IMG/VR virus record: IMGVR_UViG_2630968533_000001
Source of the DNA: a virus
Lineage: Duplodnaviria; Heunggongvirae; Uroviricota; Caudoviricetes
Length of the DNA stretch: 47,560 nucleotides
Direction: 5' to 3' (one strand)
The notes beneath the pieces are model-generated. The model did not search any database. It had not been told where the DNA came from and saw only the letters and a list, made by a program, of their open reading frames with translations. Positions 4,841-47,550 of this stretch are shown one piece after another. Each line of letters begins with the position of its first letter. Position 1 is the stretch's first letter. The position numbers were made by a program, and so were the translations under genes.

Positions 4841-5509
4841 TTACGCGGCAGTAGTCAGAGCCTCAAGCTGGTTGATAATCCCCTGAATAACGTCGTCTGC
4901 CTTTTTGCGTGGCGCAACGTATGAGCATTCAATGAGGCTTAAGCCCTTATCCTGAGCTTTGCTCAGAGCTGGCTTGTGGGGAATGTACTTATCGACAACA
5001 AAGTATGGCGTATTAGCCAGGTACTCTTGGGCTTCAATGTAGTCGGCTTCGTTTTCAGCCGCGCCTGAGAACACCATGCAAATTTTCTTGATTGGCACAC
5101 CCTTTTTAACGATGCCGTGAGCTGTGTTAACGGTGGTTTCCAGGTCATCGGTAGAGAATCTGGTTGGCAAAATAACCATATCCAGAAATTCAGAGAGCTT
5201 CGGTACTGATTCAGATGCGTAGGCACCGCCATCGACGATAACCAGGTCGTATACTTCTGATTCGATGATTTTCTGGACTTGTGATGGCGTGCCGCACGGC
5301 TGCGCCGCGATTGCAGGTTCGATATTGTTGGCCATTCTGCGTTGTACCCAACGCGTTACCGTTCCGTTAAGCACATCCATATCGATCAGGCATACATTCC
5401 AGCCGGCCTTTGCATAAGCAACTGCTAAAGCACGGGCAATTGTTGATTTGGTTACGCCGCCTTTTCCGTTGAAAATACCTACAGAGATAGTCATTTGTCG
5501 AGACTCCAT
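4841..5509 (-). CDS. parA: ParA/ParF-type partition ATPase
   Basis: ORF track; deviant Walker A GKGGVTKST near the N-terminus; about 220 aa, typical of small type Ib ParA proteins. Confidence 0.85.
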   Translation of the reverse strand: MESRQMTISVGIFNGKGGVTKSTIARALAVAYAKAGWNVCLIDMDVLNGTVTRWVQRRMANNIEPAIAAQPCGTPSQVQKIIESEVYDLVIVDGGAYASESVPKLSEFLDMVILPTRFSTDDLETTVNTAHGIVKKGVPIKKICMVFSGAAENEADYIEAQEYLANTPYFVVDKYIPHKPALSKAQDKGLSLIECSYVAPRKKADDVIQGIINQLEALTTAA

Positions 5510-42845: not shown

Positions 42846-43462
42846 TGGCATTCAGAATGAGTGAACAATCACGTACCGTAAAAATTTATAACCTGCTGGC
42901 CGGAACTAATGAGTTTATTGGTGAAGGTGACGCATATATTCCACCTCATACAGGGCTGCCAGCTAATTCTACAGATATCGCCCCACCGGAAATTCCTGCT
43001 GGCTTTGTGGCAGTTTTTAACAGTGAAAATGAATCGTGGAATATTGTTGAAGACCATCGTGGTAAAACGGTCTATGACGTGGCGTCGGGGGACGCATTGT
43101 TTATTTCTGAACTCGGACCGCTACCAGAGAATGTCACCTGGTTGTCGCCAGCAGGGGAGTATCAGAAGTGGGACGGCGTATCCTGGGTGAATGATGAGGA
43201 AGCAGAAAAACTGTTTCGGATACGGGAAGCGGAAGAGAAAAAGGCAAGGTTGATCCAGGAAGCAACAGATAACATCGCAATTCTGCAGGATGCAGTTAAT
43301 CTTGAAATAGCAACAAACGAGGAAAATTCACAACTGGATTCCTGGAGAAAATACAGAGTATTAGTGAGTAGAATTGACACCAGTACAGCTCCGGATATCG
43401 TATGGCCAGAGCTGATGAATCAGGGTTATGTTCGGGAGGACGAGCAGATAACTTCAGACTGA
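42845..43462 (+). CDS. Tail fibre assembly protein (Tfa)
   Basis: ORF track; 205 aa immediately after the fibre gene. Confidence 0.75.
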
Positions 43463-43989
43463 AATTTAGTGATGAATGTTGAATCATCAGGAATATCATG
43501 CAATACCAATGCATGAGCACCTATTGTGACATTGTTTCCTATACGCACTTTGCCACCAAGAATGGTGGCATTACAACCAATGGTCACATTATGCCCTATA
43601 ACAATATCCATATCATTAAATTCCCCGCGAAGTCCAATAGTTACTCCGGGCTTAATTGAACAATTTTCACCGATTGTTACTTTGTGACCGATAACAACAC
43701 TGTTGAGATAAGAAATATCAAAGCCTTTCCCTATATTTACAGTTAAAGGGACTGTTACATTATATTTATCAAGAATGAAACGTTCTATTTTTCCCGCAAT
43801 CTTCCGACAGTATCCGCCTTTATCAAAAAGGTATTTGGCTATGCGCCACCAAAATAAATAACGAACCCTTCTATGTTTTATTGCGCGAACAATTGCCTTT
43901 CGCCAGGAGAAAGGACGCTCGCTACCGATTACTTCATAGTGAATACAGTCTTTAAGTTCATTAATATTCATATCTTTATTATTCAGCAT
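43426..43989 (-). CDS. Hexapeptide-repeat (left-handed beta-helix) acetyltransferase, CysE/WcaB-like
   Basis: ORF track; repeated [LIV]-G-x-x-x-x-I-G hexapeptides ([49 protein letters not shown]); convergent, 3' end overlaps Tfa by about 37 nt; AT-rich. Confidence 0.75.
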
Positions 43990-44469
43990 AAGATAATCAT
44001 GTGACCAATTATTGTAATAATTTTAATGGTATGTTTCTACTGGCTATCCAGCGTGTCTGATACCCAGTAACAAATCGTTAACACAGGTGCAATCAAATGG
44101 TGAGTGTTAAGACTGGCCACTTATTACCAGGTATGAGGGTATGAGTGGCCAGCATTAAATCAGAACAGCCCTTTAACTGAACTGGCCGCGCTGTTAAGGG
44201 ATGATGTCACCTTATCTTTGAAGCCGGACAGCATATTGCTGAACGATGAGTTTACCGCAGGTTTCTGGCTGGGAATCATTGACTGGAGTTAGGCCAGTAG
44301 TATGATGCTCGCAAAACGAGATCCAATTTAGATCCTTTTACTGGTGGATTATCGTTCGATCAGTGAGAGACTTCGTGCATGACCGAAAGTGTTGTGGTAG
44401 AGTTCTCTTAAAACCACGTAACGTGGTTATGATTGTGGGTGTCTGGTTGGAAAGTGACCAGATATGGAA

Positions 44470-44590
44470 ACAAAAAGCCCGCAGATAAATCTGCGGGCTT
44501 CTTGCGACATCCACGGAAAACCAACAATTAACCATGGGCGCCTCGACAACTCCCATTATACGTTGGTTTTCCGTGGACGCAAGAGCGAAC
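44470..44590 (-). ncRNA. CopA-like antisense RNA region (copy-control hairpins in the repA leader)
   Basis: On the minus strand: long stem-loop (44510-44577, arms TCCACGGAAAACCAAC / GTTGGTTTTCCGTGGA) followed by hairpin GCCCGCAG-ATTTA-CTGCGGGC and U-run (44471-44499), the architecture of IncFII CopA antisense RNAs. Confidence 0.45.
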
Positions 44591-44592
44591 AT

Positions 44593-45441
44593 ATGGATAG
44601 ACCAATGCCGTCTCTACGTTCAGCTTACGTTTGTAATTTGTCGCCGGAGTTCCAGCCTCCAAAGCACCATACGCACAAGCTGCCGCTGGTGTTATCTGAT
44701 GCTTTACAGCGCATTAATGGGCGTGATCTTACGTGTGAGGTTGCGTTCTACGTTAATCAACCGTCAGAGCGGAAGCGCCGGATAAACGAGCATCGTCGTC
44801 GGGCGATTAATGCTGTGATCGCTGCGATTTTGCACCATGTAAACATCATTTCTAAGCGGGTTCTGGCCAGTGCTGAGGCGTTGGCTGATTTTTGCGGCCT
44901 GTCTACCGTATCCGAAGCTGGGAACAAGTCTATAACACGCTGTACAAGGGCGTTGTCGCAACTGAAAGCGTTAGGTTTTATTGATTATGAACGTCGCTGG
45001 GATCGGGTGAATAAACAGTATTGGCCAGCGAAAATAGAGATTCGTGATCAACTGCTGGAAACCGTTGGTATTACTGAACAAGCATGGAGACGTGCGGTTA
45101 GCCAGAAACTTAATTACTTCAATGCGAAGAATAGCGAACGGCTTAAAAAAGCGATAACGGAGGCTGATTATAAGCGTATTGTTATTCAGGAGCAGATGGA
45201 GAATGTATGGCGTCAGAGGAAGACGGCCAGAGAGATAAAGGCAAAACAGAAAGCAGCGGAGAGAGCTGCGCGTCTTGTTCGGGAAAAGGGAGAGGCCGAA
45301 CTTCGTCATCAAATCACTAGAGAGGTTAGCCAGGAATTTGCTGATGGCATGTATCCTGGAGCTGACCTTGCATATTTACGATCCCTCGTTGAGCAGCGTT
45401 ATAACAGGTTAAGAAAGACCTGGAAATCACTCCAACATTAA
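44593..45441 (+). CDS. repA: Replication initiator RepA (IncFII RepA1-like)
   Basis: ORF track ORF 44464-45441; core CGLSTVSEAGNKSITRCTRALSQLKALGFIDYE recalled as close to R100/R1 RepA1; start placed at ATG 44593 to match the ~285-aa length of RepA1. Confidence 0.75.
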   Translation: MDRPMPSLRSAYVCNLSPEFQPPKHHTHKLPLVLSDALQRINGRDLTCEVAFYVNQPSERKRRINEHRRRAINAVIAAILHHVNIISKRVLASAEALADFCGLSTVSEAGNKSITRCTRALSQLKALGFIDYERRWDRVNKQYWPAKIEIRDQLLETVGITEQAWRRAVSQKLNYFNAKNSERLKKAITEADYKRIVIQEQMENVWRQRKTAREIKAKQKAAERAARLVREKGEAELRHQITREVSQEFADGMYPGADLAYLRSLVEQRYNRLRKTWKSLQH

Positions 45442-45479
45442 CCCACCTGAATGATGAATCCGGTTTTACCGGAGGATTA

Positions 45480-45700
45480 TCTACGTCGCAATAAAACATC
45501 TGTTCAAAAAACAATCTAAATTAATTTTCTCTAAACCTGAACACAGCAAAAATATCGCCTTTACAGGCATCGGCTAATAAAGTTATCCACAGTTTTGATA
45601 TGTATATGCAAATGGTTTTTTATAATAGATGCACTAAACAAATAAATGCAAAATCACTTTCTTTTATTAAGACTTTCTTTATTTAACTTACGCAGGCTTT
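45480..45700. promoter_or_regulatory. Putative origin region with DnaA box TTATCCACA (45583-45591) and AT-rich tract
   Basis: Perfect DnaA-box consensus directly downstream of repA followed by about 100 bp of AT-rich sequence, as in IncFII oriR layouts. Confidence 0.45.
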
Positions 45701-45910
45701 GCCTGTGAATATGTTCGCCCTTGCAGCGAGCTAAAGCTCGCGCCGGTTCGAGTCGCTACGCTCAAATATACCTCCTCCGGCACTTGCCGGAGGCATGGAG
45801 CAGCCTGATCATCCTTTTCGAAACGGCGCGTTTCGAACTATACAAAATCAATTTATATAAGGCCGAAATAAGGCCTACGGCCGGGCTTTGCAGGAGGAAG
45901 GGGCGAGCCT
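45700..45910. repeat. Cluster of five short GC-rich hairpins
   Basis: Perfect short inverted repeats caggc/gcctg, gcgagc/gctcgc, ctccggca/tgccggag, cgaaacg/cgtttcg, aggcc/ggcct within 200 bp. Confidence 0.35.
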
Positions 45911-46072
45911 TATCAATAAACGTCGATAAATACGCACACAGTAGCCATCAGAACGCGATAAAACGTAAGAAACATCATTTCCTATTAGACATAGAAAACT
46001 TGTCTTATACGCAATGTAGTAAATTTCTATTGCCACATAGGAAAAGATTTCCTACCATCGTAGATATAATAA

Positions 46073-46372
46073 ATGGAGATGGTTATGGATAAAGATACTG
46101 TTTTAAAAATGTTGAATCCGGCTTGTTTAAAAAAAGCGGATGAATGGGAATCTCCTACATGTGGAGAAGTTCGGGCAGTCATTGGCCTGACCGGAATGAG
46201 CGGCTCGCAGTTAGCCAAAAAACTAGGCTTAAAAGATAGTCGCAATGTTCGCAACTGGCAGATGTTAAAGGAGTCCACATCCAGATCCAGCATTCCGTAT
46301 GCAGCCTGGGCGCTGCTGTGTTACTTCGCTGGGTTAGGGTTAATCTTCATTGATAACAAAACAGATGTTTGA
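46073..46372 (+). CDS. Putative HTH DNA-binding protein with hydrophobic C-terminus (99 aa)
   Basis: ORF track; GEVRAVIGLTGMSGSQLAKKLGLKDSRNVRNWQ resembles an HTH. Confidence 0.45.
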   Translation: MEMVMDKDTVLKMLNPACLKKADEWESPTCGEVRAVIGLTGMSGSQLAKKLGLKDSRNVRNWQMLKESTSRSSIPYAAWALLCYFAGLGLIFIDNKTDV

Positions 46373-46659
46373 AACATGCAAATATGAGGTTTGTTATGGA
46401 ACTTGTACGCAAAACACGCAAAGAGTTCTTGGACCTGTATCGCATGGGAGCTTTCACTTGTGTTGTGGCTACCCAGGACGAAGTGACAAAAAGCTGGCGG
46501 CTTTTTGCTCTCAATAAAAAAGGGATTGCCGTTTTCATTGAAAAAGCCCGTGGTGGTATCCGCGAATGGGCGGGATTGAATTATGTGGCTGATTTTTGCG
46601 CAGCTATGGGGATTCGTCGCTGGGAAGTCCATATGCCAGGAGTAAAGTCACAAAAATAG
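46369..46659 (+). CDS. Hypothetical protein (96 aa)
   Basis: ORF track; coupled to the upstream gene. Confidence 0.45.
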   Translation: MKHANMRFVMELVRKTRKEFLDLYRMGAFTCVVATQDEVTKSWRLFALNKKGIAVFIEKARGGIREWAGLNYVADFCAAMGIRRWEVHMPGVKSQK

Positions 46660-46897: not shown

Positions 46898-47251
46898 TTG
46901 AGCATGTGGACGGTACTTTTTAGCCAGCGATTTGACGACTGGCTAAATGAGCAAGAAGACGCTCTTCAGGAAAAGGTTTTGGCTGATTTGAAAAAGCTAC
47001 AGGTTTACGGACCTGAGTTACCCAGGCCATATGCCGATACCGTAAAAGGTTCTCGGTACAAAAATATGAAAGAGCTTCGCGTTCAGTTTTCTGGCCGTCC
47101 GATAAGAGCCTTTTATGCGTTCGATCCGATTCGCCGGGCCATCGTTCTTTGTGCAGGAGACAAAAGTAACGATAAGCGGTTTTATGAAAAACTGGTGCGT
47201 ATAGCTGAGGATGAGTTTGCAGCACATCTGAACACACTGGAGAGCAAGTAA
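46898..47251 (+). CDS. RelE/ParE-superfamily toxin (HigB-like gene order)
   Basis: ORF track; KELRVQFSGRPIRAFYAFDPIRRAIVLCAGDKSNDKRFYE matches the addiction-module killer signature as recalled; toxin gene precedes the antitoxin. Confidence 0.7.
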   Translation: MSMWTVLFSQRFDDWLNEQEDALQEKVLADLKKLQVYGPELPRPYADTVKGSRYKNMKELRVQFSGRPIRAFYAFDPIRRAIVLCAGDKSNDKRFYEKLVRIAEDEFAAHLNTLESK

Positions 47252-47550
47252 TGAGAACATTAGATGAGGCGATTGCCAGCCGTTCACCTGAAAGCCAGGC
47301 GCGAATTAAAGAAATGGCAGATGAGATGATTCTTGAGGTCGGCTTGCAGATGATGCGTGAAGAACTCCAGTTATCACAAAAACAGGTTGCTGAGGCGATG
47401 GGTATAAGCCAGCCAGCAGTAACAAAGCTGGAGCAGCGCGGAAATGATTTAAAGCTGGCGACATTAAAGCGTTACGTTGAAGCTATGGGAGGCAAATTAA
47501 GCCTGGATGTTGAGCTTCCCACAGGAAAACGAATAGCGTTTAACATCTGA
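47251..47550 (+). CDS. HTH (XRE-type) antitoxin, HigA-like
   Basis: ORF track; start overlaps toxin stop (TAATG); HTH LSQKQVAEAMGISQPAVTKLEQRGNDLKLATL. Confidence 0.7.
   Translation: MRTLDEAIASRSPESQARIKEMADEMILEVGLQMMREELQLSQKQVAEAMGISQPAVTKLEQRGNDLKLATLKRYVEAMGGKLSLDVELPTGKRIAFNI

Follow-up and report, generated by a model that had tools for sequence, protein, structure and literature searches.

The window analysed here is the whole 47,560-nt stretch of the Caudoviricetes record IMGVR_UViG_2630968533_000001, a phage-plasmid of about 47 kb with P2-like tail genes. Between a candidate repA promoter at 44279 and the end of an oriR-like origin at about 45800, it probably carries a functional theta-type phage-plasmid replicon, whose initiator RepA would form its own lineage within the RepA_IncFII_LM family and whose copy number would be set by an antisense RNA encoded opposite the repA leader. 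More tentatively, we propose that the control follows an undescribed design in which the antisense promoter lies within the target, the leader refolds and a fast-diversifying loop of 6-9 nt splits the Escherichia coli/Salmonella/Klebsiella family into compatible subtypes, a proposal that we regard as possible rather than probable.

The initiator gene repA lies on the plus strand (44605-45441) and encodes 278 aa from ATG 44605 to the stop codon at 45439-45441; an in-frame alternative start, ATG 44593, gives a RepA of 282 aa. The enclosing open reading frame (ORF) at 44464-45441 on the plus strand matched PF02387 (IncFII_repA) with E = 1.3e-43 and 149.8 bits (cutoff 22.9), and RepA scored 232.2 bits with NF040977, the RepA_IncFII_LM model (cutoff 70). 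The initial annotation had pointed to a core characteristic of IncFII RepA1 in this protein and was borne out, as the helix-turn-helix-like core RRRAInA...LA..CGLsT.S.AG..SITR.TRAL is common to the window RepA and to RepA1, and the two proteins align pairwise with 31% identity over 208 aa (E = 8e-20). As IncFII control we used the classical RepA1 from pEC14_114, which passes NF040977 and both IncFII-specific models. The window RepA stayed below the cutoffs of the latter, with 79.3 bits for the IncFII equivalog TIGR03474 (cutoff 446.9; control 577.8) and 82.3 bits for PRK13750 (cutoff 478; control 617.5), and its identity to the IncL RepA of pOXA-48 was 20% over 107 aa. By these sequence comparisons, RepA is best placed in the broad IncFII_repA / RepA_IncFII_LM superfamily as a lineage of its own. 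The gene is already annotated in RefSeq as 'plasmid replication initiator RepA', and its PHROGs entry, phrog_7060, is labelled 'unknown function'.

The region 3' of repA is arranged as an oriR-like origin. The spacer between the two (45442-45582, plus strand) occupies the position of the IncFII CIS region and is poorly conserved save for a hairpin at 45459-45480, in which CCGG 45461-45464 pairs with CCGG 45471-45474 and flanking bases extend the helix. This hairpin keeps its pairing through the change from CCGG/CCGG to CCAG/CTGG in distant relatives and may be the repA terminator or part of a CIS-like element. The origin (45583-45800) begins 142 bp after the stop codon with TTATCCACA (45583-45591), the only perfect DnaA box in the 47.5-kb window; the box and the AT-rich tract after the gene had both been pointed out initially and are confirmed, the box being followed by sequence of 25-30% GC. 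It is succeeded by ATGCA repeats (45606-13, 45629-34 and 45646-57), which fall in an AT-rich tract of about 100 bp (45592-45690, 25-32% GC), and by conserved GC-rich hairpins at 45693-45705, 45726-45741 and 45774-45793. The block was kept in 6/6 relatives, including those with 58-63% RepA identity and unalignable leaders. Its conserved elements are GTTATCCACAGTTTT, three ATGCA-containing repeats, the AT-rich tract and, 3' of the tract, CTTACGCAG..CTGTGAATATG..CGCCCTTGCAGCG..CGCGCCGGTTCG, where the hairpins keep pairing through compensatory changes. Since the conserved block continues past 45700, where the replicon had been taken to end, the origin extends to about 45800. The block aligns with the origin regions of the IncL plasmid pOXA-48 and of the RepA relative L004, and partly with that of the IncFII plasmid pEC14_114; counterparts of the GC-rich hairpins are recognisable in pOXA-48 and less clearly in IncFII. 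In R1, a single-strand priming site lies downstream of oriR. By analogy, the conserved hairpins of the window (45690-45840) may be a primase (G-site-like) single-strand initiation signal or priming site. A tRNA-like reading of GCGCCGGTTCGAG (45740-45752), which resembles a tRNA T-arm, gave no Rfam match and was dropped.

Upstream of repA, a candidate promoter on the plus strand (44279-44306) consists of TTGACT (44279-44284), a 16-nt spacer and TATGAT (44301-44306), matching 10/12 consensus positions. For the control region we compared nine leaders and then 22 further loci retrieved with an invariant block; a scan of genome representatives with this block gave no match. The leaders of L005, L006 and L008 are unalignable with that of the window and hence unusable for covariation. 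In the nine aligned relatives the promoter hexamers are kept (TTGACT and TAT(G/C)AT; two alignment rows begin partway through the -35 hexamer) and the spacer varies freely. The untranslated leader (44313-44592, plus strand) would measure about 280-290 nt and folds with z = -7.9. It contains a palindrome at 44412-44428, AACCACG-N3/4-CGTGGTT, with invariant arms and a variable centre, which looks from its conservation like an operator or protein-binding site, and a covarying hairpin at 44443-44461 with arms CUGGU/ACCAG, UGAC/GUCA and GGCA/UGCC. No leader ORF of the tap, repY or repB kind is conserved among the relatives, in which frame and length differ (0, 32, 65 or 83 codons) or the ORF is absent. 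The ATG in the loop (44534) was rejected as a leader-peptide start, being lost in L011-L013 and opening an ORF of 32-83 codons; in the IncFII control, tap overlaps repA by 8 nt. The lack of a CopB-like small repressor ORF, noted initially, also holds, since none plausible lies between the tail module and repA, no ORF is conserved across 43990-44592, and Pfam gave no match for any of the small ORFs in that interval. The upstream neighbour of the replicon is a minus-strand acyltransferase gene in the window or an invertase gene in relatives. Transcription attenuation was considered too: in plus-strand orientation, UUCUUGCG comes after the hairpin, and no U-run comes after the long stem.

Opposite this leader, we predict a countertranscript. 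Folding of the minus strand at 44462-44600 reproduced the long stem-loop followed by a hairpin and U-run that had been read there at first sight, with a 20-bp stem-loop, then a 16-bp hairpin and UUUUUGUUU (-69.5 kcal/mol, z = -9.2; 0/200 shuffles as stable); the inverted repeats are 44510-25/44562-77 and 44471-86/44489-504. The predicted RNA of about 80 nt (44468-44550, minus strand) would start at about 44550-44547, form a 5' stem-loop in which CCAUGG (44537-44532) pairs with CCGUGG (44516-44511), and end at a terminator hairpin (44498-44477) with its U-run (44476-44468). Its fold of -41.1 kcal/mol (z = -6.2) is made specific to the minus strand by G-U pairs and retains pairing in 100% of cells on nine distinct sequences, as against 47-54% in slid controls, with three pairs changed on both sides. 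The U-run side of the terminator (on the plus strand, an A-run 5' of the hairpin) is invariant in the nine-leader alignment, the terminator stem shows an A-U to G-C exchange, and a sub-threshold Rfam Thr_leader match mirrors the stem-loop-plus-terminator shape. A candidate antisense promoter read from the sequence (44555-44582, minus strand) comprises -35 TTGCGT (44582-44577), a 16-nt spacer and -10 TATAAT (44560-44555); it was missed in a consensus scan because its -35 matches 3/6 positions. Both hexamers are invariant in 9/9 distinct sequences and four spacer positions vary.

The predicted target is a long stem-loop in the repA mRNA (44500-44584, plus strand) with a 7-bp basal helix (44500-06/44578-84), a 16-bp helix (44510-25/44562-77) and a loop of 36 nt. 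The antisense -10 sits in this loop, and the promoter spacer is the 3' arm of the same stem. Pairing of the target stem is kept in 94.7% of cells against 37-49% in slid controls; three pairs of the long stem are changed on both sides, and a fourth counted pair lies in the terminator helix. The loop block 44535-44566 is invariant save one substitution in nine relatives, while the replicon DNA overall is about 74% identical. The antisense RNA and target had been likened to CopA and CopT. A leader countertranscript is indeed predicted, but the Rfam models CopA (RF00042), PK-repBA (RF01089) and PK-repZ (RF01087) had no match at E <= 1 in the window and close relatives; the CopA search covered the window, L003 and L009, and the IncFII control L002 scored 90.4 bits (gathering score 60). 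As the control was detected, the RNA appears to be analogous to CopA and not a recognisable homologue of it.

Within the target loop, a segment between the 5' arm and CCATGG (44526-44531; AATTAA in the window) is hypervariable. It occurs in at least eight alleles of 6-9 nt, among them AATTAA, AACAAT and AACAACAAT, within E. coli-clade DNA whose remainder is about 99% identical. The 50-nt bin 44508-44557 holds 13 variable columns as against 0-5 in the other bins of 44308-45507, and bins nearer the replicon ends hold up to 33. On the predicted antisense RNA, it falls in the loop of the 5' hairpin. Loops that determine specificity in CopA/Inc-type RNAs behave in the same way, and the hypervariable loop is likely, from its pattern of variation, to be the specificity and hence the incompatibility determinant of the antisense/target pair. 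A comparable case is the differentiation of IncL from IncM, which rests on RNAI divergence (PMC12365149). Taken together, the candidate promoter, the predicted terminator, structure, covariation and variable loop fit what is expected of antisense-RNA-controlled theta replicons, in which a constitutive countertranscript with a promoter and terminator of its own is complementary to the rep leader; the window replicon may belong to this functional class.

How the antisense RNA would act on repA is suggested by an alternative hairpin predicted at 44562-44606 (plus strand), formed by AUGGAUAGACCAAU and the 3' arm of the long stem, which would bury the GGA Shine-Dalgarno-like element together with the initial bases of AUG 44605. 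When the full leader was folded, the long stem was predicted in every lineage; when the antisense-bound stretch was made unavailable, the alternative hairpin appeared in 6/6 lineages with dG of -17 to -22 kcal/mol, and refolding is proposed for this reason. The partners of the 3' arm differ by lineage (AGACCAAU, GAAUUCAAC, UUCAAC, CCAGC) and are all complementary to the arm. The alternative hairpin is stabler than 98-99.7% of shuffles of the 3' partner, and pairing in its outer helix reaches 98%, as against 24-40% in slid controls. In the scheme that we put forward, the sigma-70 promoter at 44279-44306 would drive repA, whose transcript would open with some 290 nt of untranslated leader, and RepA (278-282 aa) would act, probably in cis, on the origin 142 bp downstream, with unwinding at the AT-rich tract. 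A constitutive countertranscript of about 80 nt would be made from the promoter inside the target stem-loop (TTGCGT-16-TATAAT) and end at the terminator (44498-44468). In the free mRNA, the 23-bp stem would hold the 3' arm and thereby leave the ribosome-binding region of repA open. The antisense RNA would contact the nascent leader via the hypervariable loop and next pair with the 5' arm, and the freed 3' arm would refold onto the ribosome-binding region and block RepA translation. The proposed control involves no CopB/RepC-type repressor, leader peptide or pseudoknot. On the folding models, the chance that antisense-triggered refolding sequesters the repA ribosome-binding site is roughly even.

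Several points weigh against this scheme. The covariation of the alternative hairpin is not significant (240/500 shuffles reach the observed value), the drop in accessibility at the start region is modest (mean unpaired probability from 0.49-0.60 to 0.32-0.48), and invasion of a 23-bp stem needs co-transcriptional binding. The antisense -35 departs from consensus at half of its positions, and the minus-strand RNA as a transcript, the position of its 5' end and the point at which repA transcription begins are all predicted. The pairing and covariation counts have 6-9 distinct, related sequences as their whole basis and are on this account supportive, not conclusive. A further promoter-like sequence, TAGAGA-17-TATGTT, can also be read upstream of the stem. 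Weak as it is, this outer promoter would suit a longer antisense RNA of about 115 nt that starts near 44582, includes the whole stem-loop in the manner of CopA and Inc RNAs and acts through a kissing loop with a steric or RNase III block and no refolding. Such an RNA would agree with the z-score of the full minus-strand fold, with the preservation of the long stem by compensatory changes and with the relative L005, in which the antisense promoter (TTGAAA-16-TATAAT, 11/12) lies outside the stem-loop. The outer promoter, however, matches 8/12 positions, falls under the scan threshold and has CATGTT as its -10 in the Salmonella and Klebsiella lineages, whereas the inner TATAAT is invariant, and we therefore consider the longer RNA rather unlikely. 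An arrangement with no regulatory RNA at all, in which the GC hairpin is a bidirectional terminator insulating repA against transcription from the invertase or tail-fibre genes upstream and the long repeat a DNA operator or a cis-acting mRNA element, is less probable still. A symmetric hairpin could work on both strands, and the palindrome with invariant arms at 44412-44428 nearby resembles a protein-binding site; yet the U-run is found only on the minus-strand side, where it is invariant, and an invariant TATAAT with a TTG -35 and a variable 16-nt spacer faces the hairpin. A hypervariable loop would be hard to explain for an operator, as a protein partner would need to co-change, and the whole superfamily uses countertranscripts at the leader position.

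Two further alternatives concern the extent of the gene and the type of the replicon. The initial annotation had begun it at ATG 44464, so that what it took as the leader (44470-44590) overlapped its own gene. If the resulting 325-aa ORF were the real RepA, the hairpins would fall within its 5' coding part and the antisense RNA could directly block a ribosome-binding site and start codon at 44464: the PGAP pipeline gives E. coli records the long form, most E. coli-clade alleles keep the ORF open and in frame, the 117- and 120-nt leader versions differ by a multiple of three, and the 3' tail of the antisense RNA overlaps the ATG. We judge this very unlikely. ATG 44464 lies directly after a hairpin and has no usable Shine-Dalgarno sequence; in the leader alignment it is missing outside the E. 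coli clade, including the Salmonella and Klebsiella lineages, and in four E. coli-clade alleles (L022, L035, L036 and L038) its frame differs from that of RepA. RepA relatives of 58-86% identity are 274-284 aa long and their alignment begins at Met44/Met48 of the 325-aa ORF, the Salmonella homologue is annotated by PGAP at 277 aa, and the Pfam and NCBIfam matches begin beyond residue 50. The spacing from the invariant GCGAACAT block to the conserved start also differs by non-multiples of three among lineages. Because relatives start at Met44/Met48 and ATG 44464 is absent or out of frame, we read 44464-44592 as untranslated leader and the 325-aa ORF as over-called by 43-47 codons, with the start of RepA predicted at the conserved 44605 or at the in-frame 44593. 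A true R1/R100-type IncFII replicon that became simpler by losing copB, retained CopA/CopT and is incompatible with IncFII plasmids is hardly credible. The PF02387 match, the RepA1 core and the shared order of antisense RNA, repA, DnaA box and AT-rich origin speak for it; against it stand the TIGR03474 score (79 bits, cutoff 447), the 31% identity to RepA1, the missing CopA match, the absence of a conserved tap, the lack of a MOB-suite replicon type and an IncFII-typed plasmid resident in the same strain as a near-identical replicon. Of the label 'IncFII-type' used initially, the superfamily initiator and the IncFII-like layout thus remain, and the assignment to IncFII in the strict sense is not supported, as the TIGR03474 and PRK13750 cutoffs are missed, neither a CopA match nor a conserved Tap was found and MOB-suite assigned no replicon type to the records examined.

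We compared the arrangement with the R1 and pOXA-48 replicons, whose architecture is described in PMC5883639 and PMC12365149. With IncFII R1/R100 the window shares the Pfam family of the initiator, a countertranscript encoded in the repA leader (in the window, a predicted one) and an origin that lies 3' of repA beyond a spacer of about 140-175 bp (PMC5883639); a perfect DnaA box opens this origin, and an AT-rich tract and GC-rich hairpins come next, in the same order as in the control. It differs in the failure of RepA with the IncFII equivalog and in having no CopA homologue, Tap or CopB. With IncL/M plasmids (pMU604, pOXA-48; repCBA) it shares the passing of the model RepA_IncFII_LM and, for pOXA-48, origin features comprising TGCAA repeats, the AT-rich tract, CTGTGgATATG...CCTTtCAGCG and a GC hairpin, but the DnaA-type box is out of register in the origin alignment. 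The window leader also lacks a PK-repBA/PK-repZ match, a RepB leader peptide and a RepC repressor, RepA is 20% identical to the IncL protein, and the replicon coexists with an IncL/M plasmid. This coexistence is found in E. coli strain 142, whose plasmid p142_C carries a replicon 99.7% identical to that of the window next to the IncFIA/FIB/FII plasmid p142_A and the IncL/M plasmid p142_B. The co-residence suggests compatibility, and it is only suggestive because p142_A has several replicons. MOB-suite (via PLSDB) gave no replicon type for 5/5 records of the window replicon examined, and it does type pEC14_114, pOXA-48 and others.

The leaders also appear to have been exchanged among related initiators. 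A PK-repBA leader scored above the Rfam gathering score of 45 in the RepA relatives L004 and L005 (60.4 and 49.3 bits, respectively), whose RepA proteins are 36% and 63% identical to that of the window; L005 lies in a conjugative-plasmid context. One initiator lineage is therefore paired with different leaders, and comparison of these sequences indicates an exchange of leaders within one RepA lineage (L005) and at least three leader designs for it, namely that of the window, PK-repBA and the L006/L008 type. L005 additionally shows, at 2863-2989, a strong minus-strand promoter (TTGAAA-16-TATAAT) and a stem-loop with UUGGCG in the sense-strand loop. In L006 (2528-3004) and L007 (1236-1712), with RepA identities of 59-60%, an ORF of 158 aa lies directly 5' of repA and overlaps its start by 4 nt. 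Its product is itself a PF02387 match, with 30% identity to residues 11-134 of RepA, and the L006/L007 lineage may therefore use a different control, protein-based or translationally coupled.

Beyond this superfamily, antisense-induced sequestration of the rep ribosome-binding site has reportedly been found in staphylococcal pSK41-type plasmids. The likeness to the prediction for the window is that upstream antisense binding changes the mRNA fold such that the rep start becomes paired; the initiator family and host are unrelated, and in the window the antisense promoter lies inside the target loop. The element resembles P1/P7, D6, SSU5 and N15 in being a temperate phage that persists as a plasmid of low copy number and encodes an initiator of its own, a ParA-type ATPase and a toxin-antitoxin pair, but these have other replicon types. 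The genes used in screening for them are repL with IncY or p0111 repA for P1, repL and repB for D6, repB and parB for SSU5, and telN and repB for N15 (10.1101/2025.09.12.675607). Our literature search found no paper describing the 47-kb phage-plasmid group or its control circuit. The name pSLy3 was rejected for the group, being that of a 114-kb SSU5-type element, as were HQ103 and pSZESBLEC201-2, neither of which could be tied to the window replicon (pSZESBLEC201-2 is P1-like); in a paper on Weltevreden, the accession is listed only.

The identification of the element as a phage-plasmid follows from virion genes, circular plasmid records and phage genomes together. Tail-fibre and assembly genes adjoin repA, which puts virion genes and a plasmid replicon on one element. 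A megablast with 44000-46100 returned 53 plasmid records with at least 80% query coverage, nearly all circular, of 46-52 kb and classed as 'non-mobilizable', from the hosts E. coli, E. albertii, E. fergusonii, Salmonella and Klebsiella aerogenes, and circular plasmids of 46-52 kb with the replicon number at least 58. The Yersinia phages vB_YpM_39/41/44, with genomes of about 49 kb, carry it at 99% identity. Among 5,426 complete E. coli genomes, 70 (about 1.3%) contain the segment 44250-45750, and all 81 places at which it occurs in these are on plasmid records, with 0 on a chromosome. This plasmid-only occurrence is the best available non-experimental evidence and suggests that the segment provides autonomous maintenance. 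RepA was found in 3/50,697 phage records, in all three as a product annotated hypothetical.

The existence of the replicon is not new, as the RefSeq annotation of RepA attests. What appears to be undescribed is a leader design with no CopA or PK homology, leader peptide or repressor, together with the predicted antisense promoter inside the target loop, refolding hairpin and hypervariable loop. The replicon maintains a family of phage-plasmids of about 47 kb in E. coli, Salmonella, Klebsiella and E. albertii/fergusonii that are recoverable as infectious Yersinia phages, and since MOB-suite gave it no type in the records checked and its initiator is labelled 'unknown function' or hypothetical, these elements may be missed or mis-binned in plasmid and phage surveillance. 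A defined repA start, origin and control RNA would give a typing target for them. The segment is also a candidate for a minimal vector replicon that can coexist with IncF and IncL/M plasmids, and the loop alleles form a natural series for testing the evolution of antisense specificity and therefore of incompatibility.

The neighbouring genes complete the picture of the element. Near the replicon lie a tail fibre gene (948 aa) and a gene for a Caudo_TAP tail-fibre assembly protein. The replicon had been placed immediately after the tail-fibre module, and the tail genes are indeed nearby, but a hexapeptide acyltransferase gene (43426-43989, minus strand) lies between the assembly gene and the replicon. 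The module at this position is interchangeable, being the acyltransferase in the window and a Hin-type DNA invertase in many relatives, and the homology of the invertase-carrying variants with the window restarts at 44251. A stretch of 96 bp just before this point (44155-44250) shares 96-99% identity with segments of tail-protein genes from P2-like phages such as P88 and Xuanwuvirus and looks, on this similarity, like what is left of an invertible tail-fibre segment. A sub-threshold Rfam IS009 match within the tail-fibre assembly gene (43188-43386, plus strand) scored 81.5 bits (gathering score 117; E = 5e-18) over the full model and probably reflects coding-sequence homology.

A ParA/MinD-type ATPase gene (4841-5509, minus strand), some 7.5 kb away from the replicon when counted over the circular junction, is likely the partition system, and elsewhere the window encodes a CI-like repressor, Rha-type regulators and a Gp49/HTH toxin-antitoxin pair. 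The ParA-type ATPase and the HigB/HigA-like toxin-antitoxin pair fit plasmid maintenance. Two small genes on the plus strand lie 3' of the origin. The first (46073-46372, phrog_8351) has a weak repressor-like helix-turn-helix match, and every relative examined carries an equivalent gene, alike in size and place; the second (46369-46659, phrog_4595) is present in several relatives. Downstream of them, at 46898-47550 (plus strand), the Gp49/HigB-like toxin gene is accompanied by its HTH antitoxin gene, and the small genes and the toxin-antitoxin pair may together belong to a maintenance module.

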